From Antedon mediterranea (taxonomy: Eukaryota > Animalia > Echinodermata): a stretch of 64,000 nucleotides of DNA. Below the pieces are notes generated by a model. That model ran no database searches, had not been told where the DNA came from, and was given only the letters and a program-made list of their open reading frames with translations. Below are positions 6,208 through 56,631 of the stretch, in pieces (positions within the stretch are counted from its first letter, which is position 1; each line of letters opens with the position of its first letter). The DNA is taken from assembly GCF_964355755.1 (NCBI RefSeq), contig NC_092677.1, forward strand, positions 1,200,101 to 1,264,100. The letters run 5' to 3'. The position numbers and the translations under genes were made by a program.

Positions 6208-9200
6208 ATGTTTACAAAAATAAATGTGTGTTTCATCCTTATTAACGGTACGTTTATTGATGGAGCTACAATGTAAACTTGTTCAATGGTTTAAGTAGAA
6301 TAACATTTCGAAATACAGGTATATATTTCTTGATTGACAATAGTGGGTTGATTAGTAATAGTTACTGATTTTCATAACTAGACGTAAAGTAAGAGCTTAT
6401 TAAAATGTGCACAATAAATTATTTAAATAATTAAAAATTGATTAATAATTTTCTCCTAGTTTTATTTAGCACATGTACTGGTGTTACTGTAACTATTGAC
6501 AGCTTGGGAGATGTGATTGAAGGATCTGAAACGAAAATGATATGTAACTACAGTCCTACAACTGGTAGCACTGTTATCATATCATGGCGAAATGTCACAG
6601 GAGGGGCATCTGAATCTATAGCAACAACTATTGGGGGTGGAACTAAAACAGTGCAGCCTGCCTACAGTTCTATTTTTAGTCTCGATCCAAATGATGATAG
6701 ACTTCTTGTGATTGCTAACACGTTACGTAGTTACAGAGGTGATTATGAATGTGAGGTTAATAATCTTGATAATCCTCCAATTGACACGGATGTAGTTACT
6801 CTGAATGTTATATGTAAGTTCATTTTATTGTGCAGGAACTATAATTATCTATCTTGTGAAATTCAGAAAATTATAAATAGGCATATTAACTGTATTTTGA
6901 TTACTTTTATTGTTTCTTAAAATATATAAAATATAAGCTTCTAATTAAAAGTGAAATGATTAGGCCTAATAGTTTACTTTTTTGTGGTTTAGTTTACGAT
7001 TGTGGCTATTAATCCCCTATTAATACGTAATGACTTATGTTGTTAATTACTTGATATTTTTAGCATATTTAGTTACTTAGTACAACACTAGATATCATCT
7101 TTAATCAAATGTATGGGGTAGAACCGTTATGTCATCATTTGAGTATCTCATTCTTGACTTACAGATATAGAGGACCCAGTATTAAGTTTTACTACACCTA
7201 TGAATGAGGGTGATCCAGTAGCATTGTCATGTGATGTTGTTTCTAAACCAAATTCTCAGTTAACATTTAAGAAAGATGGATCCATTTTACAGCAAGGAGG
7301 CTCGTCTACTTACACCTTCACTGCGGATCGGAACGATCAAGGGAGTTATACATGTGAGGCAAGTAACAGTGCTGGTACTAAAGCTACTGCTGGTCAGGTT
7401 CTATATGTGTATTGTAAGTGCCTCTATATCATTCACATTTAACTAAAATCCTAAAGAACCATTTCTGCATTAAACTTTGTTTAAATTCTAATTTAACTGT
7501 AATCTATAGATTCTAATTCAACTGTAATCTATATATTATAATATAACTGTAATCTGGATTCTAATTTAACTGTAATCTATATATTATAATATAACTGTAA
7601 TCTGGATTCTAATTTAACTGTAATCTATATATAATATAACTGTAATCTGTATTCTAATTTAACTGTAATCTATATATTATAATATAACTGTAATCTGGAT
7701 TCTAATTTAACTGTAATCTATATATTATAATATAACTGTAATCTGGATTCTAATTTAACTGTAATCTATATATTATAATATAACTGTAATCTGGATTCTA
7801 ATTTAACTGTTATCTATATATTATAATATGACTGTAATCTGGATTCTAATTTAACTGTAATCTATATATTATAATATAACTGTAATCTGGATTCTAATTT
7901 AACTGTAATCTATATATTATAATATAACTGTAATCTGGATTCTAATTTAACTGTAATCTATATATTATAATATAACTGTAATCTGGATTCTAATTTAACT
8001 GTAATCTATATATTATAATCTGTAATCTATAGATTGTAATTTAAATGTAATCTAGATTCCAATGTAACTGTTAATTGTATTAGTTTTGAATGTGTACTGT
8101 ATTATCAAACTATAAAGATATAATGTGTGATGGAGGTGTGCTTGGGGTAAAAACAGCAATTTACCAAAAATAATAATTAAAGATTTTTTTTTCTAAAAAC
8201 ACAAACTCGAAAAATTATTCGGCATAAATATTTTTTAAAGATTTTTTTTTATAAATAAATATGCATTTCCAACAATAATTATTTAACGTTTAAATTAGTC
8301 GCTCCTGAAATTACACCACTAGAAGACATTGAAGTTTCCCGAGGAGAAACTGTTGTGATAAGCTTTGTCGTAGAGGCCAGACCAACTGCTAACTATGAAT
8401 GGTTATCACAAGGAGCAACTGACATTGATAACGACCCAGAAACATTCACATTTGTTGCTTCAAACACCATTGGTGATGTGTATACTGTGACGTTGAATGC
8501 AAGTAATGAGGTGGCAGCAAGACAGTGTTCAGTACAAGTCACTGTTGTAGGTAAGATAAGGTATAACTGGTCTCTCAACAATGTATTCATATACAAAAGT
8601 AATGTTTAAATATTCAAATCAAATCTATATTTATTTTCATACAACAACGACTTTAATAATTATGATATAAGATTTTGTAATAAAACTTCATATTCCTCAA
8701 TAAAAGTACCTTATTTCAACCATGGAGGAAATTCGTTCACTTTTAACGTAACATTAGATTTACTAGACCTAAGAAATGGAACTCACTTCCTAAAAACATC
8801 ACAGATTTATCTACCAAACGCATTTCTATTTTAAAAAGATTGTCTATTTAAACTATAATGTTGGAAACGAATGACAATAAAGAACAGATTTTATTAATTT
8901 TTTTAGATTTAGTTTAGGCCTATTTTGTAGTGACGTTTGTGATGCACTTTTAGAAAACTGTGCTTCATTCACTATTTAGCAACTTTAATTTCGATATGAG
9001 ATATGTTTAAAAAAAAATACAAATACTTGGGGAGGTATTAATAGCGATGTTAAATGTAGGTTATCCGTTAAAAGTGATAGTTTTGTTACGTTGCCTGTTT
9101 CTATAATCAAGTATCTTTTTTTTTTTCAGAAAAGAATACACAAACTGTAAAAGTAGAACCTGATACAATTAAAGTTGGTGAAAACGCAACGTTGACGTGT

Positions 9201-11757
9201 AACTATACAGTTGATTTAGGAGATTTATTGCATCAACTTGACTGGTATAGAGCCGATGCTGACGGCAATCAAGTAGGCAATGTTCTAGTGTCTAAAACAA
9301 GAAAAACGGTAAATGGTCGTTATATATTGTCTACCGATAATGATCTTATAATAACCAATGTTGAAGTAAATGATGACGGTAACTATCTGTGCAGAATTGA
9401 AACAGTTCTTGGACTATATGCTAGTAACAACAATACACTTACAGTACCATGTAAGTACTTAAAAATTCGTCAGCTACTAAAAACTCCATATCCGCCAATT
9501 ATTTAGGCCCATATTCATGGATTGCCAAGTGAGACAGTCAATGCGTGTCACAGTACAAACACAAGATGCTCTTATCTGTTGTACAATGTATTAAAAAGTA
9601 GAGTTTAAAATGTTGTGAGCAAAATCTTGACATCTGACAGGATATAAACACAGATTTGTGTATGCACAATTGACTATTGTATACTACTGGGTACTACTGG
9701 GTACTACTTGGGTGCTTAGCGTCAAATAATGTACGCTAATTAGACGAATAGTTTAAACCCAAAAACCATATATTTTTAGACGAATAAGCCGAATTCTATT
9801 GACTGTACTAAAATTGTGGTATAAATTTCATTTTGAATTACAGACCTAGAAGAACCTGTTCTAAATCCAACCGATATATTCGTCAAGAAAACAAAAACGG
9901 CAACTTTCACATGTAATTTGCCGTCTGGTATTCCAACACCAATTAACATGACGTGGTTAAAATATTGCGACATATTAGATGTGTCTGATACAGATAAATA
10001 TCCGCAATCTAGTACGACATTAATAATTAGTAATGTAAATGAAATAGATGAAGGAATGTATAAGTGTAGAGCTGAGAATGCTGCATACAGCGGAACGGAA
10101 GGACAACTTAGCAATACAGGTAAACTCTGTAAATTAGTACAAAATGAAATTTATCTATTAGTAATAATAGAACGAGACAATAAGCGAAGGAAATATGAAA
10201 GCGAGATAACTTGATTGGTGTTTAGTGGTGTTAGAATTGAGCTAATTTTGAGCTTTCGAATTGCGAAGACCGAGCCCTGTAATAGGACCAACAAAATAGA
10301 CATGCCAATGTTAATTCCTTGTGCGCGGTGCTACACAAGTTTTTGTTTCTAGATCAAATTAGCCAAATCAATGCGTAGATCGTATTTCTATTTGTAAATT
10401 TATATTTTAAGTTAAGGGTGCTACAGATCAAAAACCTTTGCTTGTTTGTGGTTATCCTGTTTTTCACACTTTTATTTTTACCTCGTTTAATATTATTATA
10501 TAGTTATGAAATTTTGTGTGAAAAACAAAGAATACTCAGACTGATCTGATGTAATGAAAACCACTGAATTTTCTTTCTTAGTTTTAAGCAGAGAAGATGA
10601 ACATAAGCACTCAACTGGACTTGTTGTTGGAATGACGTTTGTCGGTGTGTTTATTGGCTGTATGTTAAGTCTGCTTACATTCTTCGTTATCAAAAAACTA
10701 TGACCGGCAAAGGTACAAACAAGTTGAGATTAATTTATTTTACACTTTTTAATGTCTAACCATCACATTTATTTTATAGTAATTATGTGTGAGTCGCATT
10801 TTATAACAGTGTTCATTTGTTTGTTTAAGGTATCTTCAACAAGTGACAACCAATCTGGGGTAAGGAAAGAGCAAGTGATTGTTTCCCTAATTTTTAAAAT
10901 CACGCTTTAATATCTCATGTTTACCGTGAAATACATCATATTTTAATCTTTCTCTTTACATGAAATTACTATAACAACAATAGGAAACAATTACAAACTT
11001 CATTGATATGTAATGATTGGATATCATTTGTAATTTAATTTACCTTTTATTTTGCTGGTACAACAATTCGCAATGCGTGATGTATTTGTAATCGTAATCC
11101 ATAATGGTATATGCAAATATTCCATGTAAGTCAGGATGTGAATTGGTAGTTTGAATAAATAAATAACATGTCGTCGTCTGCGCATGCCTAGTAGCATTAT
11201 ATATATTGTTTGAAGGTTTTTTTCTCACTCCTGAGGACGATCAAAGCATATTGATCGAAACGTGGAAAAACTCAACAGTTCTTTTCAGAACTAATATACG
11301 TGGTGTACCGCAACATTTATATCAACATTATATATAATAGTAATGCTATTTTAAATATCAATTAAAAGATCGTATAAAATAAAAATAGGAAGCCCACGAA
11401 AGAGAAAACAAAGGCATTATCGTTAGAATCGATGTCAGCTTTCAATCACACTCATTATTAGACCACGCAGCACTACCATTAATAAAAAAAGACCTTATAA
11501 AATATTTTTAACGTCATAATCGACACCTTATCGTCATCGATGCAATAAACAATATAGACCTAATGTGAAAACTGTTTAACAATCAGCGCAAAACAATCAA
11601 TATTGTTTTCTTCCTCAAATTGTTATAATACATGATGTTTTTTTTATCGTAGGAATACACAACTTATGTTGGTGAGATGAATCAAAGTACCAGTCACACG
11701 TACGAAGAATTGCAGAAAAAGGATACAAATCAAGTATACGAGAATGTAAAAACTTAG
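6208..11757 (+). CDS. Gene A: five-Ig-domain type-I membrane receptor (SP-V-C2-I-like-V-C2-TM); cytoplasmic tail separated by an in-frame TGA
   Basis: Exons 6208-6247 (MFTKINVCFILIN + VLFSTCTG signal peptide), 6460-6813 (V, YRGDYEC), 7165-7413 (C2, DQGSYTC), 8299-8550 (Ig-like without canonical Cys), 9130-9450 (V, DDGNYLC), 9844-10119 (C2; alternative donor 10128), 10582-10712 (TM GLVVGMTFVGVFIGCMLSLLTFFVI, TGA 10701-10703), 10830-10859, 11653-11757 (EYTTYVGEMNQSTSHTYEELQKKDTNQVYENVKT*). All splice phases are compatible. Confidence 0.85.
7480..8070. repeat. 48-bp intronic minisatellite (ctggattctaatttaactgtaatctatatattataatataactgtaat)n
   Basis: About 11 direct copies, each built from two related subunits sharing aactgtaatct. 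Confidence 0.9.
11215..11335 (+). mobile_element. Probable Penelope-like element end fragment with a degenerate hammerhead-ribozyme-like core
   Basis: ctgagga-c-gatcaa(agcata)ttgatc-gaaacgt at 11231-11263 fits the CUGANGA-stemII-GAAA pattern found in Penelope pseudo-LTRs. Confidence 0.45.
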
Positions 11758-24085: not shown

Positions 24086-24202
24086 AGCTTAACGATTAAT
24101 ATCGTTTAGTATTCCTATCATGTCACCGTCGTCATCAACAATTATTATAATCATTACTATCTTATTGTTTGTGCGATCAAATCACTTTTGTATATTCATC
24201 AT

Positions 24203-24290
24203 GGAGGGGTATATGACTTATATGGACAAGAAGAAATAGACCATACGTACCAAGATTTGCAGATGAAAACCAACAATCAAGTTAAAAAAC
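24203..24290 (+). pseudogene. Relic terminal exon of the Tyr-motif tail
   Basis: tatatgacttat...catacgtaccaagatttgcagatgaaaaccaacaatcaa = YMTY...HTYQDLQMKTNNQ; frameshifted, no AG acceptor, second Tyr lost. Confidence 0.7.
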
Positions 24291-25296: not shown

Positions 25297-26705
25297 ATGC
25301 ATAAAATGGTGCGTAAATGTGTGATAATTCTTTTGGTCTTCCAATTTTGTGATTGTAAGTATAAGAATATCATATAAAGCATTTTTTTTCACAAAAAGGG
25401 GATCACGCTACTGTAAATTAATTGAAAGGGTTACTAAAGTATATCAATTTGTAGGCCTATGTTAATGACATAATAAACAATTTAAAATAAGATACATTAT
25501 TATAATGAAATTGTGTTAAATGGGACAATTACCAATTGTACGCATATCATAAAGATATAAAGTGAAGTATCGGTGCAATGAAATGTGTATGTATTTACAT
25601 TCAGTTACGATTTGTCAGACTGAACCTGTAGTCACACTACAAGATGCTATTGCCGAATTGGGTGGAGATGCAGTCCTCAACTGTCATTACACACTCAGTG
25701 GTAAAAGAATCCTTCTTGGTGTCCAATGGTACAGAAGCAATTCAGCAGGAGATCAGTTGGATTTTCTTGTTAATACTCAGATAAAAAATCAACATGGTAG
25801 ATATACAGTTGTTGCATCCAGAAAATCTGCTCAAATTGGAACAGCTACTCTCACCATTGCAAATACAGTATTGTCTGATGATGGGTACTACCTTTGTAGA
25901 ATCGTTGATACCACCGGTGAACCTGGTGAACATTCTGCAAATCTTGCTGTGTACTGTGAGTATAATTTTGTTTTTTTCAATATAGCAAAAAAAAAACATT
26001 GGTAAAAACAACTCTGAATGGTAGTAATGGACAGAAACTATTAGACAGGTACTGGTTGGTATAAAACAGTTAATATAGCCTACTTTTTAGCGTAGGTTTT
26101 TCTTTAGTTATTATATTCGTTGTAAATGTAAATTTTTGATTTGAAATGCTATTTATTTATTTACCAGATTTCTATAGCGCCCTTTTCATGAAAACTCATG
26201 CTCAAAGGCGCTTCACATCATAAAGACAAACACCATAAGCAATAATTACAAAAGTAACCTCAAATTATACGAAATAAGATTTCTTAAACTAAGTTATAAA
26301 TATTCTTACTGTCCATTAATTAAAATCGCATAAAATAGAAAAATAAAATGAACGATATACAAAATAGGTCGGAATTTCTTAAACTACGATTACAAAAATA
26401 CAATGTATTTACATATTAATTATTATTTAATTTATTTATTTATTTATTTATTTTATTTATTTTTTTTTTTTTTTATAAATTTAATTAAATTGATTAAAAA
26501 TTAAAAATATTATTGCACAATGCAATTGCACTATGTTACCAAGTAAAATTTTATTTATTCAGTTTTTAACAGCCCTACAGTCCCAAATAGTGTGGACGTG
26601 AATGATTCAAAGAACTGTGTTGGAATGGGGTTTCTCGGTTTTTTCTGTGGACTATTTTTGTGTTTCCTGATATGTTGTGGGTGCAAAATAAAGAATGGTG
26701 TGCAG
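25297..26705 (+). CDS. Gene C: single-IgV type-I membrane protein with Cys-rich TM and short tail (3' exons uncertain)
   Basis: Exons 25297-25354 (MHKMVRKCVIILLVFQFCD), 25605-25955 (V: C..VQWYR..GRY..DDGYYLC), 26563-26705 (stalk + TM CVGMGFLGFFCGLFLCFLICCGC-KIK). Candidate last exons: 26882- (NQ*) or 27084-27122 (KSGSDKTARNDK*). Confidence 0.8.
26148..26218 (-). mobile_element. 3' terminal fragment of an L2-like LINE or SINE
   Basis: Minus strand reads tgtgaagcgcctttgagcatg..aaagggcgctatagaaat..(aaat)n, the typical L2-type stem-loop plus short repeat tail. Confidence 0.5.
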
Positions 26706-28019
26706 GTAGGAATAATTTAAATCAGACATTTTAAAAACAGGATCATATTCATAAAACTTATTTTATTTTTAAAAATAATAATAATTTTATTTTGATTTGA
26801 CAATCATGTGGTAGTGTTTACTTTTCTAAAAACTTAATTTTATATTTCTTGTCATTATTTTGTTTAATTATTCACCTTAAGAATCAGTAATAATACTACA
26901 CTGCCTGGTGTAGGCCCACTGCCAAATAAACAATCTGTTCAGTACTGTATAGGTTAATATGTCTATAAATTATATAGGGCGACGTGAATAACATTTATTT
27001 TCCCCATTTCCGAAATGTTATTAGTAAATTATTCAATTAAGTAAATTAATTAACATTAGTATTCATTTTTGTTTATTTTTTAGAAATCAGGAAGTGACAA
27101 AACAGCAAGAAATGATAAATAAATAGATTTCTATTGGACTATGTTAATAAACTGTATATTTGTTATCCAAAAACAGCACAATATTATAACCTTAAATTAT
27201 TTTGGTCATATTGATAACGGATAATAATTATATTATGAGGAAATATGCCTGTTATATCGTTGACGACAAGGTAAAGTAAGGTATACCTATTATAATAAAT
27301 TATTTCCGGGTGTATTTATGGTGTAATTAGGTAAACATGGTTTGATATAAAAATTATAGCATACGACTACTTTCTTTGCCTGGAAACGGCAGTTTATTTT
27401 TGTTTGCTTGGGTTTTATTTTCTAGTGTACAGGCATCAATAACGGGTTAGCAACCAAGAACCATTGTTTTTCTGTACTTGGAAAAGCTAAGAAACATTTA
27501 TTATATAAATGGCATATTGGCCCAAATAATATACAATGTAAATAATATTTTTGAGTACGTATATAAATTCTGTTCTACGTTTAAATGAAAAAAAAAATGT
27601 TCCAAGCTTAGTAATGAGATCAGTATTTGTAGTAGACATAAGATAAATTAATTTTAATTTAGATGAGTAATTTGTATAAAAAGAAAACATATATTTAGGC
27701 CCTAGTTCCAATATCTATATTGATTGTAGTGAACTTCAATTCAATTTCTAATTCTAAATCCCTTGTCTTAGTTTAGTCATAATGTGTTATTATTCAATTA
27801 CAAAATTATATTTAAGGCGTGTGTAATATTGGAGCTTAGAGTTTAACCTAGTATCTTCATAGAATTGTTGACGTTCAATATCGGTAATTTAATAAAATTG
27901 GAAATAAAATTATACATTATATTCTTGACCTGTTGTGAATGCCATATGTTACCAAATCCATTTATGCATAATATTTGTTTACGTCATTGGCCCAACATTG
28001 CTCATTCCGTTGGGCTTTT

Positions 28020-33817: not shown

Positions 33818-35460
33818 CACTCATCTCCACATCAGCAGGATGGCCAGTATAAGCAAGACTGCAAGAACATACATATCAAAGTGAATTGCACTATTATTTT
33901 TAATTTTCTTATGCAATGATTATCAAATTTATTTATTATATTATGTGAGGGAGTGTGGTGCAGTGTGTCGGATGTAGGAATACTGATCGTGAGATCGTGG
34001 TTCGAATCCAACTCTCGTCGCATTGCTTGTATCCTTAGGCAAGATACTTTACTTACATTTGCCTTTCTCCACCCAGGTGAATAAAATGGTACAGTTAGAT
34101 CAAGACACAACTTTGCGCTGATTACCAGCTTTATGGAAGTATATTTCCATACGTGTTTGATCAAAAATGACCGGGATAATAATGTGAAGCACTGCATTGA
34201 GAGCTTGCTTATATGGGCTATATAAGAATGAACTATATATTATTATAACTAGATAGTAAAAAGATGAACAAAATACAATGAGGCATTATATACTTACTTT
34301 CCTGGTACCTTTTTCTTCCCTGTAATTTAAAAAATGAAATAGCCAAAGTTAACAACCACAATACTGTGGTCTGTAACATTGTGTAGAAGTGTTTTTAACA
34401 TAGCTTTATGGAAAGTACTGAGGAGTTCAACTCAAGTAGACTTCATCATACCTTACTTTTACTAATTTACCAATAACAATTAAAAGTGTTCAAAATTAAA
34501 GGAGGTTTTTAAGAACATACGATTTGACATTTAACAATATTTAGTAAATTGGTTCCCAATTTTATAATTGAATGCACAGGCATGTGTTGTGTGTGATGCA
34601 CAGGCATGTGTTGTGTGTGATGCACAGGCATGTGTTGTGTGTGATGCACAGGCATGTGTTGTGTGTGATGCACAGGCATGTGTTGTGTGTGATGCACAGG
34701 CATGTGTTGTGTGTGATGCACAGGCATGTGTTGTGTGTGATGCACAGGCATGTGTTGTGTGTGATGCACAGGCATGTGTTGTGTGTAATGCACAGGCATG
34801 TGTTGTGTGTGATGCACAGGCATGTGTTGTGTGTGATGCACAGGCATGTGTTGTGTGTGATGCACAGGCATGTGTTGTGTGTGATGCACAGGCATGTGTT
34901 GTGTGTGATGCACAGGCATGTGTTGTGTGTGATGCACAGGCATGTGTTGTGTGTGATGCACAGGCATGTGTTGTGTGTGATGCACAGGCATGTGTTGTGT
35001 GTGATGCACAGGCATGTGTTGTGTGTGATGCACAGGCATGTGTTGTGTGTGATGCACAGGCATGTGTTGTGTGTGTGTTAGCCTCTATGTTTTATAGTGT
35101 GTAGTATAGCTTCAAATATATATATATTTATATACTGCTGTTTGTTTTGTTTCCTTTCATTATTTTGCTCAATTGTTACATTGTTTTATTTTGGATGCAC
35201 CACTAACGACAGTGTGTGTCACTGATAAAAAAGTGATGACCAATAAATAAATAGCAATAAATGATACTGGTACCAATAATAAACGTTGTACTTTCTTCAT
35301 TGATCCAAGTATTTATATTCATCTGCATCTAATTAGTGGCTATATAACATATTAATTAACTTACTTTTCTTGCAGTATAGCACAGCTACAACAATTACAA
35401 CAATAACTACAATGACAGCAATGATCACTCCTGCAATCAGACCACCATTCGATCCTTTTT
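33818..35460 (-). CDS. Partial minus-strand gene: TM exon plus two cytoplasmic exons of an unrelated single-pass receptor
   Basis: AG/GT exons 35460-35365 (KGSNGGLIAGVIIAVIVVIVVIVVAVLYCKK), 34319-34298 (RKKKVPG), 33858-33818 (NLAYTGHPADVEMS); phases 1-1, 1-2 and 2-1 chain correctly. No ectodomain exons found. Confidence 0.7.
33944..34248 (+). mobile_element. tRNA-derived SINE with CORE-like central domain and L2-like tail
   Basis: A-box-like tggtgcagtgtg, B box ggttcgaatcc (33999-34009), gtatccttaggcaagatacttt..ctccacccaggtgaataaaatgg, 3' ggctatataag..(tat)n. Confidence 0.75.
34571..35078. repeat. 24-bp minisatellite (gatgcacaggcatgtgttgtgtgt)n, about 21 near-perfect copies
   Basis: Direct tandem repeats; explains the 8-aa periodic ORFs. 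Confidence 0.95.
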
Positions 35461-36356
35461 CTAAAGGTCATAATTAATGTTTGTGGGTCATTCTTCATTA
35501 AGTGTCTAATTTCAGGTTTATAAAAAATCGATTTTAAAATTTGCATTTTTTAAATTTTAAAAGTTTATTCAGATAAATGAACATGTATTACATGGCAAGC
35601 GTATGTTTGGCGCAATCTTTATTATATATTTCGTATTTTATTCGTATTTATAAATACATGGTTCTATGTTACTGTCATTTCCGTCACATTTATGGAATAT
35701 ACAAAGATAGAAAAAATAACGGTTTAGGAATTATAAAATTATTTCCATTATTAATTCTTTGATACTATATATTATTTTTGTCTCTATTCATCAACAAATG
35801 ATTGTTTTAACATTTATTAGTATGATGTTATACGTTCAAAACCATTTACTATTCCAAAAAATAATAATTTTCAGAAAATAGTATGACTGTCACTGATGTT
35901 TTACAAAATTCTGTTGAACTAATATTACTATCCATTGACATAGTAGAAGAATATTGTTTATATTTCAATATACCACATAATTGCGTTCATTACTTAAATA
36001 TTTTAGGATTTAAAAGGATAAAATATCCATGTGACGGAGATGAAACCGTGACGGATATGACGAACTTAAAAATCATGTGACGGAGATGACTTTAAGATAT
36101 GATTTGATTATGTTTATTGACCAGAGTCACATAGATATACAATGTAATAACATAATAAAGTTCACGGGCCGTCATCTCCGTCACAACGAAACATTGGGAA
36201 ATGTGACAGAGCTGACCGTGACGGAGATGAGGTATTTAGCATTGGACAGCCTAGGATCACATCGTAGGCATGTCTGACAGCGGAGACGGATTGCATACTT
36301 CTAGATACCATGAATAGCTTGTACTTCCGGTTGAAAAGAACCAGAAATTATAATTA

Positions 36357-39178: not shown

Positions 39179-42008
39179 ATGATGACTTGCTGTTTGCTGC
39201 TATTTGTTCTTGTATTTGGTAAGTACCAGGCTTTAATGCTTTGTGTCAAACTAAGAAAACATTTAATTTCGTATTTTTGGTAAACCCATTTTCCGCATTG
39301 TTTGAAATACAAATAATTATTCAGTCATGCGTTTTATGTTATTCCCAGATTATAGATGGTGGTTCAACTTTATTTTATTTATTTTATTTTATTTCATCAA
39401 AACCAACAGCAACGAAAGTTGCCACTTAGGCCTAAAGGTATAAAACAGAAAACAGATACAATTACATCTATATATGAAACAAACTTAAATAAATAATTTA
39501 TGTAAATAGTAAAAATTAGCCTATTGAGCGCAATTATTGAAAAAAAGAATACAATGAGTCTTGAATGAAGAATAACTACTGAACAAAATATCAACATTTA
39601 CATTTGACTCACTTAAACCCCCTTTTCGAGACATTAACTCTATTAAACGGAACATAAAAGTGGACTTAACCCTGAAAAGAGAGCAACAGTCGCAACTAAA
39701 AAAACAATTGACACTCTTATAAACAAACATTAAATCAGACACACTTCTTCTAAACTTAAGAGGTTCAAGACAATTAACAACATAAAAACTTTAAAAGAAA
39801 CCTAACAAACTTATTTTAAACACGTTGAAGCCTTGTGGCATGAATATCAGAGTAAATTTAGATTTTCAACAATCATAAAAATAAACTATCAATTGAAAGT
39901 TGTTCCGTTTGTCTGTGTTTCGGTGTGTCCATTTTTGGTCATGCCTGGACCACATGGTTCAGTTGTGTTTGTGTAAGACCCGGAAACTATGAGAAAATGC
40001 ATTTAATAGAATTTTTTTTTTATTATCATAATTCTGATTTAAATACTTTGAAGCATAATGTCATATTTCACAGACAAATTTAGTTTCAGATACAAGTGCC
40101 CAAACACAAGTGACAGTGGATGCTGGTACAGCAAAAGTAGATGACGATGCAACAATGACGTGTACTTATACACTTGTACCAAATGATGGATTACTGCAAC
40201 TGTCTTGGGCAAAAGCTGATGACAGTGGTCAACAAGTAGGAAATTCTCTTGTGACTTCTACAGGTCAAGTAAACAATGGTCGATACAGTTTGTCCAATGA
40301 TAATCTTATAATAACTGATGTTGAACGAGGTGATACAGACAACTATCGTTGTGCTGTTAACACCATTGGTGGAAATAGTGCTGAAAACTTTGCTAATCTC
40401 ACGGTCTATTGTGAGTATGTAGCTAATTATGAATGAGTGTTCAAAGTTTTTGAAATGAAAAATATTAAAACTTCAACCCAGCAATAAAATAAGACGTTAA
40501 TACATTTGCATTTAACTTACATTTTACAATTGTTGTGAAAATTTTGCAATGCATACGCAAAATAGGCCTCCGGATTTGTTCGTTATGTAGTCATGAATGA
40601 ACATGTTTGCATTACAGATCTTGAAGAACCAGTTCTGAATCCAACAAAGTTGTCTGTCCACGCAACTGAAACTGTGACATTTACATGTTCTAACCTTATT
40701 GGTGTACCAACACCAATTACCGTCACATGGATCAAAGATGACGTCACACTTGATGTGTCTGATACGATAAAGTATCCGTCTTCTGATACAACATTGACGA
40801 TTAATGACGTTGATGAATCAGACGAGGGCGTCTATCAGTGTAGAACCGAGAATGCTGCTTCTAGTGGAACAGATGGAAAACTTAGTAATACTGCCACACT
40901 GTCAATAGGTTGGTTGAAATACTCATTTTGATAAATAATATATTTTATTGGCATTATAGTATAAGTATTTTCTGCATGTCATAATTATAAATGGAATATT
41001 CATATTACAGTATATTATGTCATGTGGTAACAAAAATAAAGCACAGGTACACAGCGAAAACTGTAAGTTTCAGTTTATTTTAGTTATAAAAGCCATCTTT
41101 ATAATATGAACGCATGGCGTGTTTTACTAAATATTGCTTGTTTGTTTTATATATTTCTTTAGCATTGACGACAACTTCTTTTATATCCGGTAAGTCCACT
41201 ACACGTAGGTTTTGTTTGCATTGTATTTATTATACATTTCCGGGTCTTTCCATTTTCGTAAAGCAAATAAAGGATAGAAATGGAAAGGAATATCCCCACT
41301 TCATCCCCAGGATCTGCATGAGTGATTAAAGGGAAAATAATGATGACCTTTGTATATTTGAATTGTCAACATTATAAACATGTTTAAAACACATGGTAAC
41401 ACTAATCCTTCTGTATTATTTGTTCAGTTTTAAGTACAGAAGTTCCAAAGAGTGAGAATGATTGTAATTCAACAGGTCTTGTTGTTGGAATGACGTTTGT
41501 TGGTGTGCTCATTGGATTCATTCTCTGTTTGCTTGTGGGGTTTATCCTGAACAAAATAAGGAAGTCACATGCACAGGTAAAGTATAATTCAGAAAGTAGA
41601 ACCAAAAGCAAAAGTTTAGACTTAAGAATAATGACCAAAGGTTTAATGAAATACCGCACACTTAAGTAATGGAAACTATTTTAATATTAAATATGATGGT
41701 TTATTTTGAAGGTACCTACATCGAAAAACACCAACCAATCAGGGGTAAGGATACCATACTTCAACTTTAAGTATTCAATTTCACTCATCGTCGTCACTAT
41801 TGTCACCAATATATTAATAAAGGTTTACACGATTTTCATTTTTCTTTTTGCATGCACTAAACTTTTGTATTTTTTTTAGCAGCAAGAGTATATGACTTAT
41901 GTTGGGGAGACAGATAAAGAAACAACCCACACATACCAAGATTTACAGAAGGAAGACGATAATCAAGCTGTATATGTAAATGTTAAAGCCAAAAAAGACA
42001 ACAAGTAA
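39179..42008 (+). CDS. Gene D: intact IgV-IgC2 type-I receptor with ITAM-like/YVNV tail (V subtype alpha)
   Basis: Exons 39179-39218 (MMTCCLLLFVLVF), 40084-40410 (V), 40618-40908 (C2), 41163-41189 (ALTTTSFIS), 41428-41576 (stalk+TM), 41712-41744, 41880-42008 (QQEYMTYVGETDKETTHTYQDLQKEDDNQAVYVNVKAKKDNK*). No stops or frameshifts. Confidence 0.9.
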
Positions 42009-43690: not shown

Positions 43691-45911
43691 ATGGAGGCGA
43701 AAAGTTCAAATGCGATGATTTTCCTTGAAAATATTTCTTCCCTTTTTTCACAAAAAGACGCAATCGTAAATTGCAGTATTTATAATAATTACTGTACAGT
43801 TATTTTTTTAGTTTTAGGTACACATGCAGTAGCAACGTCTGTGACAGTGGGTGGTGATACAGTTAAAGTTGGTGAGGATGCGATGATGACGTGTAGTTAT
43901 ACACTTGTCTTGAATCAACTTGTTTGGTTCAGAGCAGAGGATGATGGTACTTCAGACTTAGGAAACCCTCTGGTATCTTTAGTTGAAACAAGCAATGGTC
44001 GTTATAGCTTATCTAATGACAAGGATCTTATGATAAGTGTCGTTGAAGAAAATGATGCAGGAAATTATCTGTGTAGAATTGTAACACAAAATGTTCAAAT
44101 TGCTGACGACTATGATCAACTTATAGTCCAATGTGAGTATAGGCTAATTCATTGTCAGTGAAGCTATAATCGGTATAGTACTGTTTATAGCAGCTTTTGT
44201 TTGTTTGTTAATAAGCAATCACTAATTAACAACTACATTTCCTAATTTATCTTTTTTGAAATATGTTTTGTTGATTTTACAGTAAATGATCTTGTATTAG
44301 TTAGTTTTTACTTTTATGGCATAATTATTTGATAACATTCAATGTTTTTTACATATTTGTTTTCCTCATAATATTTTTGTTCAATATTTTAGATTTATTA
44401 GTTTTCTTGTCATGTCGACAACTGTTCAGGTGGTCAATGCTTAAAGTAATTTTTACTTATTTTGATCTCCTTTCACACATCCTTTTTCTTTTCTTATAGT
44501 TCGCTTTTATAGTTAAATTATTCTTTTGTTTTTCTAGATGTTTCAGAACTTTTTTTTAAGCCAGAAGAAGGATTATCCATCATGATAAATGACACAGCAA
44601 CATTTATATGTACTTCACTTGATGGTATTCCAACACCGATTACCATAACATGGATCAAAGATGGCAATGAAGTTGATGTTTCTGATACAAACAATGATGT
44701 AGCATTAACGATTAATAAAGTTGCTGAAACAGACGAGGGAGTTTATCAGTGTAGAACAGAGAATGCTGCTTACAGTGGAACAGATGAGAAACTTAGTAAT
44801 AATGCCACACTATCAATAGGTTGGTGAGAATAAACATTTTGATAAATAATATATTGTATTGGCATCATATTATAAGTAGTTTCTACAAGTCATAATTATT
44901 AATGGAATATTCACATTACAGTATATTAGCCTATGCCATGCGGTAAAAAAAATAAAGCACAGCTACAGCGAAATCTGAAAGTTTCAGTTTATTTTAGTAA
45001 TAAAAGGCCTTTTGTAATATGAACGCATGACGTGTTTTATTAATATTGCAATTTTCTATTTCTTTAGCATTAACGACGACTTCTTTTATATCCAGTAAGT
45101 CAACTACACGTATATTTTGCTTGCATGCATTGAATTGTAAATTTCCGGGTTTTTGCTTTTGCGAAAAGAAAAAAGGGATAGAAATGGAAAGGGATATCCC
45201 CGCTCCATCTCATGATTAGTATCACGCTTAAAAAGGAAAATAATGATGACCTTTGTACATTGTCAACACTACATTATTGTAAACATGTTTAAAACACATG
45301 GAAACACTTAGCCTTCTGTATTATTTGGTTTTAAATTTTTTTAAATACAGAAGTTCCAAAGAAAGAGAATGATTGTAATTCAATTGGTCATGTTGTTGGA
45401 ATGACGTTTGTTGGTGTGCTCATTGGATTCATTATCTGTTTGCTTGTGGTTTTTATCATCAGCAAAATCAGGAAGTCACATGCACAGGTAAAGTATAATT
45501 CAGAAAGTAGAACCAAAAGCAAAAGTGCAGACTTGAAATGACCAAAGGTTTAATGAAATACCGCACACTCAAGTAATGGAAACTATTTAAGCATGAAATT
45601 TGATTTTAATTTAAAGGTACCTACATCGAAAAATACCAACCAATCAGGGGTAAAGATGTTAATCTAATTATTCAATTTCACTCATCATAATTAGTATTAT
45701 TACTATTGCCACCAATATATCAATAAAGGTTTACACGATAATTGTTTTTTTGCATGCACTAAACTGTTGTATTTTTTTTTAGCAGCAGGCGTATATGACT
45801 TATACTGGAGAGACAGATAAAAAAACAAACCACACATACCAAGATTTACAGAAGAAAGACGATAATCAAGCTGTATATGTAAATGTTAAAGCAAAAAAAG
45901 ACAACAAATAA
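43691..45911 (+). pseudogene. Gene E: IgV-IgC2 receptor paralogue (V subtype beta) with deleted signal-exon donor but open reading frame
   Basis: ATG 43691 reads in frame through the former intron into V (43812-44132); C2 44538-44819; 45068-45094; TM 45351-45487; 45617-45649; 45783-45911 (..HTYQDLQKKDDNQAVYVNV..). About 35 bp including the donor is missing versus gene H (57486-57521); 12-nt in-frame deletions in V and C2. Functional status uncertain. Confidence 0.75.
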
Positions 45912-46603: not shown

Positions 46604-49600
46604 ATGATGACTTTTTGTTTGCTGCTATTTGTTCTTGTATTTGGTAAGTACCAGGCTTTAATGTTTTGTGGGTGCTACTATAAGTTAACATTTGATTTTC
46701 AATTTTTTTTATAAAACCATATTAGTCGATCCAGGTCAAGGTCAAAATAGAAGGTTTCTAAAGGTTTTTGGTATTTTTATTTCATTAAAGTAAATAGAAA
46801 GTTGGGCATTCCGAATAATTTGGGAAAACTTTGAAGTCTCTACGACCAGTCGTTGATGAGATATTGAGATAATCCAAATTTACAGTCAAAGTTCAAAACA
46901 TGCATTTCCGGTCATATTTTAAAAAACTTTCCCATTTTAATGAATATAAATATGGGTCTTCTGAGTATTTTGACACCAATTTCGCTTATGTACTCCTATC
47001 GATCACCAAGATGTCTATAAAATTAAAATATGCTTAGGTCAATAGTTCAAAGGTCAGAATAGAAGGTTTCTAAAGGAATTTAGTATTTTTCTTTCATTAG
47101 AGTGAATAGAAAGTTGGGCATTCTGAATAATTTGGGACAATTTTGAACTCTCTACGGCCAGTCGTTGATGAGATATTGAGATAATCCAAATTTATGGTCA
47201 AAGGTCAAAACAGGCATTTCCGGTAATTTTTTTAAAAAACTTCTCGATTACAGTGAATATAAATATTGGTCTTCTGAGTATTTTGACACCAAAATTGTTT
47301 ACTTACACCTACTGGTTGTCAAAATATGGTAAATAATGTTAAGATGGCCGCCATTTTGAAAAATGGCCCAATCAGGTTGAAGCACAACGGGGAAACCCGG
47401 GGACTTTTAGTATGTTGTTCCAGACAACATTGGGGACCTATCCTGAAACATTCAGCTTTAGCATATTTATTTCTACCTTTGGCCCTTTTTTGTCTAATAC
47501 TCCTGGACTAATACATGTAGGCCTATAGTACCTTTCCGTCATTGTTTGAGATACAAATAATCATCATGCATGTTATTTTCGAATTTATAGAGGTCGTTCT
47601 AACTTAGGTTAACAATTATAAAAGTAAACTATTAATTACAAAATCTTGAAATTTGCCGGACCACTGGTTTGGTTTGTGTGAGAGCCCAGAACAGAAAACA
47701 CAATAGAAAGAATGCATTCACTAGAATGTTGATTGTTGTCGTATCTTTCTGATTTTAATACTTTGCAGCATAATGTTATCAATTGATCAAATTTATTCAC
47801 CTTCCTTAGGAGAAACATATAAAAACTGTACAGCAAAATAAAACACATTAAAATAAAGATTCACACGAATCAATAGATTAAAATGGTTTTAACAAGTTAA
47901 ATAAAGTGTCAAAACCATTGTGAAATAGGGCAGACTTGTTATATTTCAAAATCAAGTTAAGTAACTTATTTAGTTTCAGATGCAAGTGCACAAACACAAG
48001 TGACAGTGGATGCTGGTACAGCAAAAGTTGATGAAGCTGCAACAATGATGTGCACCTATATACTTGTACCAAATGATCAATTGAGTCAATTGTCTTGGAC
48101 CAAAGCAAATGACAATGGTCAAGCAGTAGGAACTGCTCTTGTGACTTCTACAGGAGAAACAAGCAATGGTCGATACAGTTTGTCCAATGATAATCTTATA
48201 ATAACTGATGTTGAAAGAGGTGACGCAGGCAACTATCGTTGTGTTGTTGGCACAATGGGTGGAAATAGTGCTGAAAACTTTGCTAATCTCACAGTCTATT
48301 GTGAGTATTGTTTTGGAGCTAAAAATTTTTTTTTTTTAATTTATTTAAATATGTTTATTTCAAGTACTGTACAGTACATGTCAGTTAGTACAGTAATTTT
48401 AATTTCATCTTTGAATCATAAGTTTCACAATCAAAAAAAAAAATTGAAACCAATAATTTGGATAAAAAGTACAAAGTATAATCATCTATTGTGATATTCA
48501 ATCTATTTCGGTGGTATGATGGTAATTAGCTTTCCAATTGATGTGTTTGCTTTTTAGAGTATAATGTAATCATAATGGTATCATTTACAAATTTAATCTA
48601 ATAAATGTATATATAATATGATATTAAAGTGAAAATTATAATGCAGGGATGTTATTTACATCAGAACCAAACGAATATTCAATATCCTATGTATGTATTA
48701 TAATTTCAAAGAAGAGTACTAAACATTAACAATTACTGTATTACAATTGGTAGGCATGTCAATTGTGTAATTTTAAACAAATGAGTATCCAAGAACTGTA
48801 CAGTATAATTTTGCCATTTCAGATCTTGAAGTACCAGTTTTAAAACCAGTAGAATTGCGTGCCACATTAAATGAAACAGCAACATTTATATGTTCTGAAC
48901 TTGAAGGTTTACCAACACCAATTACCATAACATGGATCAAAGATGACAATCCACTTGGTGTTTCTAATACAGACAAGTATCCAACTTCTGACGCAACATT
49001 AACGATTAATGACGTTGATGAGAGAGATGAGGGAGCTTATCAGTGTAGAGCAGAGAATGCTGCTTACATTGGAGAGGAGGGAAAACTTAGTAATACTGCC
49101 ACACTGTCAATAGGTTTGTGGGAATAAACATTTTAATAAATAATGTATTTTATTAGCATCATTGTATAAGTCATTTCTGCATGTCATAATTATAAATGGA
49201 ATATTCATATTACAGTATATATTATGTCATGTGGTAACAAAATAAAGCACAGGTAAACAGCCAAAACTGAAAGTTTTAGTTTATTAAAGTCATTTTTATA
49301 AAATGAACGCATGACGTGTCAGATTATTGCTTGTTTGCTTTCTATTTCTTTAGCATCGACGACAACTTCTTTTATATCCAGTAAGTCAACTACACGTAGG
49401 TTTCGTTTGTTTGCATTGCATTGTAAATTTCCGGGATTTTGCATTTGCGAAAAAAAAGGATAGCAATGGAAAGTGATATCCCTGCCCCATCCCCATGATC
49501 TGTATCACGCCTTAAAAGGAAAAATAAGTATGACTTTGTATATTTGTCAACACTACATTATTGTAAACATGTTTAAAACACGGCATGGTAACCCGAATCC

Positions 49601-50211
49601 TTCTGTGTTATTTGTTCAGTTTTAAGTACAGAAGTTCCAAAGAGAGAGAATGATTGTACTTCAACTGGTCTTGTTGTTGGAATGACGTTTGTTGGTGTGC
49701 TCATTGGATTCATTCTCTGTTTGCTGGTGGTTGTTATCATCAGCAAAATAAGGAAGTCACATGCAAAGGTAAAGTATAATTCATAAAGTAGAACCAAAAG
49801 CAAAAGTGTAGACTTAAAATTACCAAAGTTTAATGAAATACCGCACACTTAAGTAATAGAAACTATTTTAACATTAAATATGATTTTTTATTTTGAAGGT
49901 ACCGACATCGAAAAACACCAACCAATCAGGGGTAAGGATGTTACTTCAACTTTAAGTATTCAATTTCACTCGTCGTCGTCATCACCATCATTATTATCAC
50001 TATTGCCACCAATATATCAATAAAGGTTTACACAATTTTCATTCTTTTTTTTGCATGCACTAAACTTTTGTATTTTTTTTAGCTGCAGGCGTATATGACT
50101 TATACTGGGGAGACAGATAAAGAAACAAACCACACATACCAAGATATACAGAAGAAAGAAGATAATCAAGCTGTATATGTAAATGTTAAAGCAAAAAAGG
50201 ACAAAAAATAA
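46604..50211 (+). CDS. Gene F: intact IgV-IgC2 type-I receptor with ITAM-like/YVNV tail (V subtype alpha)
   Basis: Exons 46604-46643 (MMTFCLLLFVLVF), 47974-48300, 48823-49113, 49354-49380, 49620-49768, 49899-49931, 50083-50211 (LQAYMTYTGETDKETNHTYQDIQKKEDNQAVYVNVKAKKDKK*). Frame open. Confidence 0.9.
46720..47513. mobile_element. Probable non-autonomous DNA transposon in gene F intron 1, with an internal approx. 310-bp direct repeat
   Basis: Absent from the paralogous intron of gene D (aaacccatt|ttccgcattg); short inverted ends tattagtc/gactaata; 46738-46985 repeated at 47050-47295. Confidence 0.6.
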
Positions 50212-52008: not shown

Positions 52009-54381
52009 TTCATAAACTTTGATGATTTGAACAGTTATTAACTAAATATATTTTGCTTGTAAAGTAAATATATCTCTATTTATGGTAGGTTTATGGCACG
52101 TCAGGATGGACATACATAGTCATGTCCGTCCTAGCATGCCATATATGTTCAAACGCTAGTTTATAGGTTAGCTATAAAATACTGTAAAGGCCTGTAACAT
52201 CGTGACAGTACTCATGCTGCTTTAATGTCGCTGTGCTACTAATTGTGAAAATACAGTAGTTATATATACATATATGTTTTCAGTATTTTTTGTTTGTGTT
52301 GTTTGCATTTCCTATAATTTTGTTTCCAGAAATGACAAAAAAAAAACTCTCTTGACATCAACACAATGTTTAATAAATGGTAGGCCTACTAGACATACAG
52401 CACATGTTTGTAGCAAGCTATCTTTAAATATAAGTAACAAGCTTTATCTTTTATAACACCAAATCAACGTAGCTACCCTAAACTAAAAAAAAAACATGCA
52501 ATAAAAGTGCACAATATGCAGTATTTATAATAATTACTGCACAATTTTTTTTAGTTTTAGGTACACATGCACAAACTACATCTGTGACAGTGGGTGGTGA
52601 TACAGTTAAAGTTGGTGAGGTTGCGACGATGACGTGTAGTTATACACTTCAAGCGGAGATGTCTTGAATCAACTTGTTTGGTTCAGAGTAGATGATGGAA
52701 AAAACTATCTCGTATCTTTAGTTGAAACAAGCAATGGTCGTTATAACTTATCTAATGACAAAGATCTTATGATAAGTAATGTTGAAGTAAATGATGCAGG
52801 AAATTATTTTTGTACAATTTAGACACAAACGTTTCAAATTGCTGACTACTATGGTGAACTTATAGTCCAATGTGAGTTTGTCATTTCTTTGTCATAAAAG
52901 TTAAATACACAAACTCTGTTCGACAATCTTCAAATTACAATAAATAATTATAATTAAAAATTATCAAAATGAAAATAAAGCTGTGTTTATGGTATTACAT
53001 TTAATAGTCAAATTGTCTATTACACCGCAGATCTTGACACACCAGTTGTGACTCCAGCTCAATTGTCTGAGCTGCCAATATGGATGAAACAGCATTGTTT
53101 TCTACTGTACCTGTTGGATTCCCAACATCAATTACCATCACATGGATCAAAGATGACGTCGAACTTTATGTTTCTGATATAGAAAAGTATCCGTTTTCTG
53201 ATGCAACATTAACGATAAAGAATGTAAATGAGACAGATGCAGGAAGTTATAAGTGTATAGCAGAGAATGCTGCTTACATGGGAGAAGAAGGAAAAGGTAG
53301 TAATACTGCCACACTGTCAATGGGTTGGTTGGAAAACAAACTTGTTATAACTGCTGATACAGCAATATCATATTTTATTGATATTTTCTACAAGGACCAA
53401 ATTGCCTTTCATAATAATTGGTTAATATTCCTATTATGTTACGTGGTAATGAAAATGAAGCACAGCTACACAACAAAAACTGTTGGAAGTTGGGGGAAAT
53501 GTTTGGAAAAAGAAAGGGAAATGTTTTAATACTGATTGGTGTGAAACGATATTCTTTTTTTTTTAGTTATAAAAGGCTTTTTGTGATATGACGTGTTACT
53601 AATATTGCTTGTTTCTCTATTTCTTTAGCACTGACGACAACATCTTTTATATCCAGTAAGTCAACTACACGTAGGTTGTGTTTTTTTGTATTGTATTGTG
53701 TAAATTTCCGGGTTTTTGCATTTGCGAAAAGAAAAAAGGGATAGAAATGGGAAGGGATATCCCCGCTCCATCTCATGATTAGTATCACGCATTAAAAGGG
53801 AAAGTAATGATGACCTTTGTATATTTGTCAACACTAAATTATTGTAAACACGTTTAAAGCACATGGAAACACTAATCCTTCTGTATTATTTGTTCAGTTT
53901 TAAATACAGAAGTTCCAAAGAGTGAGAATGATTGTAATTCAACTGGTCTTGTTGTTGGAATGACGTTTGTTGGTGTGCTCATTGGATTTATTATCTGTTT
54001 GATTGTGGTTTTTATCCTCAGCAAAATAAGGAAGTCACATGCACAGGTAAAGTATAATTCAGAAAGTAGAACCAAAAGCAAAAGTGTAGATTTAAAATTA
54101 CCAAAGGTTTAATGAAATACCGCACACTTAAGTAATGGAAACTATTTTAACATTAAATATGATGGTTTATTTTGAAGGTACCTACATCGAAAAACACCAA
54201 CCAATCAGGGGTAAGGATGCCATACTTCAACTTTAAGTATTCACTTTACTCATCAACATCATCCTTATCATTTATTATTATTACTCTTGTCACCAATATA
54301 TCAATAAAGGTTTGCACGATTTTCATTCTTTTGTCATGCAATAAACGTTGTATTATTTTTTGCACAGGCGTATATGACTTA

Positions 54382-54823
54382 GCCCCTTTCACACAGAGCT
54401 GTAAGACGGTAATATTGCGGTAATTTGCGAACGCCGGCTTATGTGTGAAAGGGTAAAAACCCCTTAATGCCGGCTTCCGTTAGACCGCCTCTGGACCTGG
54501 TAAAATTGCGGTAATATTACCGTCACGGTCGTAAGCCTGAGTCCACGATATAACGCCTGCTTACGCAGTGAAGCAAGGCAAAGAATATAATATTCTTTGA
54601 GCAAGGATAAATTCGGGACATTTTCCTTGATTGAGAAAGACTGTGGCAATTACTTTAGGCCAAATTATTTGATTATATCCATTATATATATATATATTTT
54701 TAGGTTAGTTTGTAAATAATACAATGGAAGAATACGGCCAATAATAATAAAAATATAACAGATGTTGGTCCAAAGATTATTTAACTTGCTGTAACGTACG
54801 TAAGCCTAGGCCCTAGTTAGCAT

Positions 54824-54858
<35 letters not shown>

Positions 54859-55780
54859 CAGATTTCAGATAATATTTATTTAGATAATAATGAATGAATA
54901 TATACAAAATAGAAAAAAGATATTAAAGTGAACATAGATAAAGCAGTAATAATTGGTAGTCATTATTATCATGGATCCCTTCTAGAAGTTAAAAACTTGT
55001 CTCGTAGGGACCCACAACAAAACACATTACTAAAAAAATAAAAATAACCTAGAATATATAATTATATAATTTAGGATAAAAAATTACAGTATAATAACAT
55101 AACTAACATCTTCTTTATAAAAATTATTTAAATTATATTTCAATAATTTCATGATAATAGTTCTAGCAGGAACATCCTCCGGTGCGCGCTCCCGGTGCTA
55201 GCTCATACCGTAACAGCTTCTGATAATTAAATTCGCGTCTATTTGTAGGCCTAATAGATTTTGTTTCTGTAGAATGGCCATCACGATCGGGCCGTTATTA
55301 GCACGGAGTGGTGTTGGAGCGCGCACCGGCGGATGTTCCTGCTAGGACTATGCTAACTAGGGCCTAGGCTTACGTATACAACGTTACAGCAAGTTAAATA
55401 ATCTTTGGACCAATGGCAATATATGTTATATTTTTTTTATTATTGGCCGTATTCTTCCATTGTATTATTTACAAACTAACCTAAATATATATATATGGAT
55501 ATAATCTAATAATTTGGCCTAAAGTAATTGCCACAGTCTTTCTCAATCAAGGAAAATGTCCCGAATTTATCCTTGCTTCACTGCGTAAGCAGGCGTTATA
55601 TCGTGGACTCTTTCACACAGATCAGGCTTACGACCGTGACGGTAATATTACCGCAATTTTACTAGGTCCAGAGGTGGTCTAACGGAAGCCGGCATTAAGG
55701 GGTTTTTACCCTTTCACACATAAGCCGGCGTTCGCGAATTACCGCAATATTACCGTCTTACAGCTCTGTGTGAAAGGGGC
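54382..55780. mobile_element. Foldback MITE (PIF/Harbinger-like) inserted in the terminal exon of gene G
   Basis: TIRs gcccctttcacacagagctgtaagacggtaatattgcggtaa.. extend about 440 bp (54382-54825 vs 55347-55780) plus inner arms 55163-55200 / 55310-55346; TTA TSD at 54379-54381 and 55781-55783. Confidence 0.9.
54826..55156 (-). mobile_element. Short poly(A)-tailed retroposon 3' fragment nested in the MITE
   Basis: T33 tract at 54826-54858, interrupts one arm of the palindrome, flanked by an atagtt-like duplication. Confidence 0.65.
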
Positions 55781-56055
55781 TTATATGACTTATACAAGAG
55801 TATATGACTTATACAAGAGTATATGACTTACACTGGAGAGACGGATAAAGAAACAAACCATACATACCAAGATTTACAGAAGAAAGACGATAATCAAGCT
55901 GTATATGTAAATGTTAAAGCCAAAAAGGGCAAAAAATAATATACATGTTTAAAATAAAAATTAAATAAATATATTATCATTATCATTATTCTTATTATTA
56001 ATGGAATATCATTATAATGGTTTGAAACTACAATCCTTCTGTATTACTTGTTCAG

Positions 56056-56631
56056 TTTTAAATACAGAAGTTCCAAAGAGTGAGAATGATTGTAATTCAA
56101 CTGGTCTTGTTGTTGTAATGACGTTTGTTGGTGTGCTCATTGGATTCATTATCTGTTTGCTTGTGGTTGTTATCCTCAGCAAAATAAGGAAGTCACATGC
56201 AAAGGTAAAGTATAATTCATAAAGTAGAACAAAAAGCAAAAGTGTAGACTTAAAATTATCAAAGGTTTAATGAAATACCGCACACTTAAGTAATGGACAC
56301 TATTTTAACATTAGATATGATGTTTTATTTTGAAGTTACCTACATCGAAAAACACCAACCAAACAGGGCCATGGGTAAGGATGTTACTTCAACTTTAAAT
56401 ATTCACTTTACTCATCATAATCATCATCATTTATTATTACTATTGTCACCAATATATCAATAAAGGTTTACACGATTTTCATTCTTTTTTCATTTTTTTT
56501 AGCAGCAGGCGTCAATGACTTACACTGGAAAGACAGATAAAGAAACAACCCACACATACCAAGATTTACGGAAGAAAGAAGATAATCAAGCTGTATATGT
56601 AAATGTTAAAGCCAAAAAGGGCAAAAAATAA
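56056..56631 (+). pseudogene. Orphan TM + cytoplasmic-tail module of the Ig receptor family (no leader or Ig exons)
   Basis: Exons 56056-56204 (stalk+TM), 56336-56374, 56503-56631 (QQASMTYTGKTDKETTHTYQDLRKKEDNQAVYVNVKAKKGKK*), all in frame; joined directly to the 3' UTR of gene G. Confidence 0.8.

Follow-up and report, generated by a model that had tools for sequence, protein, structure and literature searches.

Gene D and its relatives in the window

The analysed window is a 64,000-nucleotide stretch of Antedon mediterranea contig NC_092677.1 that carries related immunoglobulin (Ig) receptor genes and gene fragments. Gene D consists of a tail exon and six upstream exons, with AG/GT ends throughout, which together encode an open 329-residue protein:

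39179..39218 (+): first coding exon, predicted signal peptide; the A. mediterranea gene model P0005 starts alike
40090..40410 (+): V-set Ig exon, 89 of 105 residues identical to the V domain of the ITIM-type protein P0022
40618..40908 (+): I-set Ig exon
41163..41189 (+): Thr/Ser stalk exon, 27 nt; a contig of run X5 includes a paralogous 27-nt exon at this position
41428..41576 (+): transmembrane exon, hydrophobic stretch without charged residue
41712..41744 (+): juxtamembrane exon, 33 nt
41880..42008 (+): terminal (tail) exon with YMTY (Tyr codons 41889 and 41898), YQDL (41934), YVNV (41973) and stop at 42006-42008

The product would comprise, in order, a predicted signal peptide, a V-set and an I-set Ig domain, a short stalk, a membrane helix and the tail. 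A pyrimidine-rich AG acceptor precedes the tail exon (+), which terminates with TAA; the acceptor is a tandem CAG that allows two starts, 41880 or 41883. The 42 residues of the exon hold four tyrosines, arranged as YMTY-x11-YQDL-x9-YVNV and followed by a basic end. The best 21-residue hydrophobic stretch contains no charged residue, as the initial annotation had said of the membrane segment, and 66 residues follow the hydrophobic window; D is in this unlike receptors coupled to adaptors of the DAP12/FcR-gamma type, which have a charged membrane residue and a short tail.

Splice junctions matching this layout were seen in contigs of run X5, which has the same species label and whose RNA nature is a guess. 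One contig joins an I-set exon to a 27-nt exon and then to a membrane exon, with GT..AG junctions; a second omits 138 nt ahead of the tail exon, corresponding in length to the D intron when the second AG of the tandem acceptor is used, with the cut placed 2 nt upstream. This tail contig differs from gene D at 8 of 101 positions, so the X5 contigs represent paralogues or alleles and not D itself.

The A. mediterranea protein P0005 is 80% identical to D, and its structure model shows two Ig domains modelled with confidence, a single helix and a tail whose pLDDT is below 50, which fits a disordered, motif-bearing tail. The fold of the model matched mouse JAM-A best, with NCAM and Dscam next. No Pfam family matched the tail, and ESM Atlas searches with both the D-type and the ITIM-type tail gave matches that were all below 0.9 and are leads at most. 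The pattern YxxL/I-x6-12-YxN[VIL], picked post hoc with the motif already seen, arose in 0.026% of 200,000 residue shuffles of the D tail and in 6 of 665 stop-free 42-residue pieces of the window, five of the six being family tails.

YQDL/I-x9-YVNV also occurs at 45837, 50137, 55865 and 56557, and YEEL-x8-YENV at 11701, in the following copies:

6460..11757 (+): gene A, five Ig exons; tail exon 11653-11757 (YTTY, YEEL-x8-YENV)
43691..45911 (+): gene E, tail exon 45783-45911
46604..50211 (+): gene F, open 329-residue paralogue, with YQDI-x9-YVNV in its tail exon (50083-50211)
52555..55939 (+): gene G, broken: its V exon is frameshifted and an inverted-repeat element interrupts its tail exon
56056..56631 (+): orphan set of membrane, juxtamembrane and tail exons without Ig exons of its own; first tyrosine replaced by Ser (SMTY)

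The only close copies of D type in the window that are cleanly open are D and F, the latter 85% identical to P0005. Gene E is open only with its first intron retained and an alternative acceptor for the membrane exon. In gene G the tail exon is interrupted by a 1,401-bp element (54381-55781), so that a stop follows directly after AYMT; the terminal inverted repeats of the element are about 450 bp long and 86% alike, with one mismatch within the first 100. A 19-bp tandem repeat at 55782-55830 restores the start of the exon, and the tail piece at 55.8 kb is without a pyrimidine-rich acceptor. In gene A, an in-frame TGA at 10701 in the membrane exon lies upstream of the tail and may be a genuine allele or a fault of the assembly; the A. 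mediterranea counterpart of gene A, P0019, is open, with Arg in its place.

The initial annotation had assigned one shared tail, encoded by a single terminal exon, to D, E, F, G and the orphan. The YQDL/I-x9-YVNV portion is indeed present at all five, but the orphan reads SMTY and E has ETDKKT; and one exon does hold all four tyrosines in gene D, but not in the interrupted gene G. The tail described for gene A was also recovered, but only behind the TGA. Because the tail exons of D, E, F and the orphan (87-94% identical) are no more alike than the adjoining introns (86-97%), the likeness of the D, E, F, G and orphan tails says nothing on selection. Ratios of dN/dS among the window copies (roughly 0.3-0.5 in the tail) were set aside as evidence of selection, since they rest on too few changes, a handful. 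In run X1, contig depths added up across the membrane and tail exons came to about 1,500-2,350, against 27-46 for exactly matching pieces, which hints at tens of copies of these exons, depth not being a copy number.

The window holds further receptor genes. Gene B (15790-24300, +) contains a V exon and several EGF-like exons, together with a membrane exon, a juxtamembrane exon present in duplicate, and a tail exon. The last has a frameshift that falls between YMTY and YQDL, and is without YxN; LINE fragments lie in the introns of the gene. Gene C (25298-26710, +) comprises a likely signal exon, a V exon and a Cys-rich membrane exon, and a family-type tail exon sought downstream of it was not found. 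Gene H (57609-64000, +) has a V exon frameshifted near its end and a later I-set exon, and continues past the window edge; a LINE-type element with long open frames occupies 58490-62285 in the intron after the V exon. At the other edge (1-2700, +), tandem EGF-like exons resembling those of gene B, together with small Thr-rich exons, form the middle of another receptor gene.

The tail motif among crinoid proteins

With the tail exon as query, two proteins were found, both from A. mediterranea. Full-length queries found relatives only in A. mediterranea and Anneissia japonica, which belong to different families of Comatulida, plus one weak unrelated match. The 23 distinct proteins from these full-length searches included eight with a D-type tail and one with an ITIM tail; the others had a membrane anchor with a short or motif-less end (six), multi-helix ends (two) or no anchor (five), or were unrelated (one). 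A profile of anchor plus tail, run against 1.84 billion representatives, gave 22 matches at E <=0.001. Sixteen were new, and the ten of these that were looked up comprised nine crinoid proteins and one gastropod protein with a partial match. The latter (P0057, Batillaria, E 7.9e-7) matched only profile positions 11-59 and was rejected as a homologue; we regard it as a look-alike.

We pooled 23 tails (ten from A. mediterranea, eight from A. japonica and five from unnamed sources); isoforms, models lacking a tail, the ITIM protein and the gastropod were not counted. YxxL/I was present in 23 of 23, YxN in 22 and YxxY in 21, counts that are not independent, owing to kinship, and that overstate conservation since 16 of the tails were gathered with a tail-containing query and seven with full-length queries. 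The spacer between YxxL and YxN was 8 residues in 11 tails, 9 in another 11 and 13 in one, and was thus 8 or 9 in 22 of 23. By comparison, the upstream spacer in the 21 four-tyrosine tails took six lengths (8-13) against two for the YxxL-YxN spacer. All four Anneissia proteins among the seven tails from full-length queries read YEDL-x9-YxNV.

The tyrosines were kept in A. japonica proteins with only 36-47% overall identity to D, while the residues between them had turned over; they are accordingly not confined to the close paralogues in the window, and it is such confinement that would have told against the initial annotation. Both genera occur in the clade with the 8-residue spacer and in the clade with mainly the 9-residue spacer, so the arrangement is likely to be older than the split between Antedon and Anneissia.

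The initial annotation had read this tail as an ITAM-like or hemITAM pair combined with a Grb2-type motif, and had conceded that spacing 9 and the terminal V depart from the strict consensus, as they do in D. The proximal half of an ITAM, Yxx[L/I], is present in D as YQDL. The strict spacer of 6-8 (PMC7026191) excludes the 9 of D and admits the 8 found in 11 of the 23 tails; looser definitions of 6-9 and 6-12 admit 9 as well. D has YVNV in place of the distal Yxx[L/I], and Thr in place of the acidic residue three before the first tyrosine, a position that is acidic in 4 of 23 tails. The ITAM-like description thus holds for the pooled tails in the motif YxxL/I and its spacing, but D is not a strict ITAM. 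The hemITAM module has to be given up: D does not match [E/D][E/D][E/D]xYxxL (PMC12582321), and a looser pattern with two or three acids was matched neither by D nor by any other of the tails scanned. The Grb2-type motif stands at the level of sequence, YVNV conforming to the Grb2 SH2 ligand consensus YxN (PMC11599192, PMC2832619), as do 22 of the 23 tails.

The residue at +3 of the last tyrosine was V in 19 of the 23 tails, A in two, S in one and L in one. With Asn at +2 nearly fixed and +3 variable, the distal tyrosine resembles a Grb2-type YxN more than the second half of an ITAM, and the A or S at +3 in 3 of 23 speaks against binding of tandem SH2 domains at this site; it is on this variable residue of the last tyrosine that binding by tandem Syk SH2 would depend. 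The fixed spacing, together with Anneissia P0011, which has a complete ITAM (YEDL-x9-YEDL) as well as YMNV, and P0060, whose tail reads YQDL-x8-YVNL, still keeps the ITAM-like reading alive. An imperfect ITAM also has a functional precedent in CEACAM3, where Met replaces the last L/I and the motif acts mainly via its proximal tyrosine (PMC7026191). Nor is the idea of an ITAM and YxN hybrid new, as marsupial (opossum) CEACAMs already join the two (PMC2832619).

A candidate inhibitory partner and other family members

The A. mediterranea protein P0022 (XP_071958243.1) and the ITAM-like P0005 are identical at 102 of 105 residues of the V domain (97%) and at 77 of 96 of the I-set domain, and their V domains are sisters in the tree with support of 100/97. 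The membrane anchor of P0022 is unrelated to that of P0005, and its tail contains two ITIMs (VTYAQV, LTYVEV) and an ITSM (TTYSSV). On these database gene models, the two proteins have the similar binding domains and opposite tails that define paired receptors. The gradient of identity, from V through I-set to anchor, is as expected from gene conversion between paired receptors, in which identity peaks at the tip and declines toward the membrane (PMC13358205, PMC2832619).

Both records give the same 28,587,047-bp contig as the longest. P0022 is a single RefSeq locus with automated models and three isoforms listed. In P0008, a neighbouring model, membrane-exon sequence precedes the V domain, apparently through a mis-join, so gene models of this kind can be wrong. 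An ITIM tail was not found within the 64-kb window, nor an ITIM-type junction in the 6 of 16 loose ends inspected among X5 contigs at the I-set exon of gene F. A minus-strand membrane exon at 35365-35462 (-), 59% identical to the P0022 anchor over 27 residues, was considered as a partner; a search of the window turned up neither an Ig exon nor an ITIM tail for it, and because no ITIM tail was seen nearby we do not call it one. The family is likely to work as on/off pairs in the manner of vertebrate immune-cell receptors, judging from database gene models, that of P0022 being a prediction. An ITIM-bearing paralogue also makes the activating role that the initial annotation had proposed for D more plausible.

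The common anchor and tail end proteins of different build, namely V plus I-set Ig proteins, a protein with three FN3 domains (P0049, from another A. mediterranea contig, of 31.7 Mb) and one with Ig and EGF domains (P0060). Tandem amplification of the tail unit is seen in P0047, P0055, P0058 and P0011: the whole unit occurs four times in Anneissia P0047, P0055 has a partial second copy and P0058 has three YExL/I motifs. The V and I-set trees conflict, D grouping with P0005 and P0022 by its V domain and, with modest support, with P0024 by its I-set domain, which suggests exon shuffling.

Some members depart from this plan. One to three upstream YEEP, YEQP or YELP motifs, depending on isoform, are present in Anneissia P0009, P0010, P0018 and P0037, and we take them to resemble Nck-type sites. 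The membrane stretch contains a charged residue in P0018 (Arg) and in the short-tailed P0025 (Asp); these two are possibly an adaptor-coupled subtype.

Readings of the tail and known receptor systems

On balance we think it probable, if only just, that the four-tyrosine tail serves in activation, as a docking platform built into a family of crinoid Ig receptors for which an inhibitory partner is predicted. Ligand clustering would lead a Src-family kinase to phosphorylate the tail. The last tyrosine, within YxN, would then recruit Grb2, with output to Ras/ERK or actin signalling, and YxxL would bind Syk, Shark (HTK16 being Shark-like) or another SH2 protein, in the manner of the imperfect ITAM of CEACAM3; it is to this step that Syk binding and activation by the D tail would belong. 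The ITIM partner, engaging the same ligand, would recruit SHP-type phosphatases. Least certain of all these steps is what the YxxY pair does. The architecture, together with rapid gene birth and death, suggests that the receptors act in immunity or phagocytosis. Transcripts for Grb2, a Src-family kinase, Syk and HTK16 are present in sea star eggs (PMC11593052).

A rival account, which we think unlikely, is that the tail serves for docking of Grb2 or similar adaptors on adhesion-type or co-stimulatory Ig proteins, with no Syk, no dedicated immune on/off role and a spacing owed to descent. Selection is indeed clearest at YxN and not at the +3 residue, the ectodomain fold matches that of JAM-A best, ahead of NCAM and Dscam, and the CD28H consensus Y-x-N-[V/I/M/T] is read as a GRB2/GADS site (PMC11599192); yet the invariant YxxL/I at a fixed spacing of 8-9, the full ITAM of P0011 and the existence of an ITIM paralogue whose V domain is 97% identical would then be left unexplained. 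That the tail is itself inhibitory or dual, binding an SHP2-type tandem-SH2 phosphatase, or Grb2 and a lipid phosphatase, on the spaced tyrosines, seems to us improbable. Inhibitory receptors, TIGIT and CD22 among them, can also have Grb2-type motifs, which counts for such a role, and 9 of the 23 tails match the ITIM pattern [ILVS]xYxx[ILV] at the last tyrosine; D is not among these, having Ala at -2, a position that is spread over seven residues. Tails of Hydractinia Alr receptors are similarly ambiguous between ITAM and ITIM (bioRxiv 2022.03.25.485889), but the crinoid family already has a separate member with conventional ITIM and ITSM motifs.

Slightly more doubtful again is the view that YxxL is mainly a clathrin-adaptor sorting signal, by which ligand would be internalised without kinase signalling. 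YQDL does fit the endocytic pattern Yxx(L/M/V/I/F), and whether ITAM-like motifs of CEACAMs serve internalisation or activation is stated as unclear (PMC2832619), but a sorting signal requires one tyrosine and does not account for four conserved tyrosines and Asn at +2. Hardly credible, finally, is a neutral relic spread by recent duplication: the window tail exons are no closer to each other than are their introns and most window copies are damaged, but persistence of the motif in another family of Comatulida, at the low identity given above and with the residues between the tyrosines changed, largely refutes it.

The activating platform may also be part of something larger. We put forward tentatively, as an idea that falls short of probable, that crinoids independently evolved a full paired-receptor system, in which the on-switch would be a portable cassette of anchor and tail whose distal ITAM half became a Grb2 site and which was shuffled behind Ig, Ig plus EGF and FN3 ectodomains, and in which ITIM/ITSM partners would be kept matched by conversion of V exons under pathogen pressure. 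An echinoderm would then have a system resembling CEACAM3/CEACAM1.

If true, a pair of 97% identical V domains with opposite tails would mean that the matched-receptor pattern of vertebrates arose in a crinoid too. The tail would also offer a short natural test of Syk-family tandem SH2 domains against Grb2 as readers of a YxxL/YxN pair with ITAM spacing. By itself the motif is less special, many invertebrate receptors having tyrosine-rich tails of similar type, and the interest rests mainly on the candidate receptor pair. Invertebrate Ig receptors with ITAMs or ITIMs have been described from a cnidarian (Hydractinia), an oyster and a tunicate (Botryllus). We found no report of an echinoderm family of this kind in the main texts of the mostly open-access literature searched, and an earlier mention in connection with a crinoid genome is possible.

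The Hydractinia Alr family resembles the crinoid family in its clustered V/I-set receptors, ITAM and ITIM tails and exon shuffling (bioRxiv 2022.03.04.482883, 2022.03.25.485889), and resembles D in having the tail motif in a last exon that follows small exons, a likeness of architecture. Alr ITAMs satisfy Yxx[I/L]x6-9Yxx[L/I], unlike D, and most Alr proteins have an Fn3-like fold; Alr1 and Alr2 are genetically linked to allorecognition, whereas the crinoid family is without such a link. The oyster receptor CgIgR is, like D, an Ig receptor with a built-in tyrosine pair, and is reported to recruit Syk and to promote ERK phosphorylation and phagocytosis (PMC6994640). It differs from D in its five Ig domains and in a classical ITAM that ends in L, and the text searched makes no mention of Grb2. 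Among deuterostomes, the FcoR cluster of Botryllus comprises IgSF genes with ITIM, hemITAM, YxxI/L/V and [A/D]VYxxV motifs, the last of which is matched by AVYVNV of D (PMC12582321). Its core-2 motif pairs lie 29-33 residues apart, FcoR pair with separate FF genes, and no YxNM motif is reported for them (PMC12582321).

Among vertebrate systems, the CEACAM3/CEACAM1 pair has an activating member with its own imperfect ITAM, in which the last L/I is replaced as in D, and the V domain of that member is nearly identical to that of a member bearing ITIM/ITSM motifs, as in P0005 and P0022 (PMC7026191, PMC2832619); we claim no orthology, and in a structure-bank search CEACAM1 was just one among many Ig matches. 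CEACAM ITAMs are split by phase-0 introns, whereas the four tyrosines of D lie in a single exon, and opossum CEACAMs combine an ITAM with a YxN, whereas in D it is the YxN that supplies the distal tyrosine of the pair. Siglec-5/14, Siglec-11/16 and PILR likewise have near-identical V-set domains with opposite tails, ascribed to gene conversion, as P0005 and P0022 do (PMC13358205). Their activating members use adaptors such as DAP12 (PMC13358205), whereas D combines an uncharged anchor with tyrosines built into its own tail.
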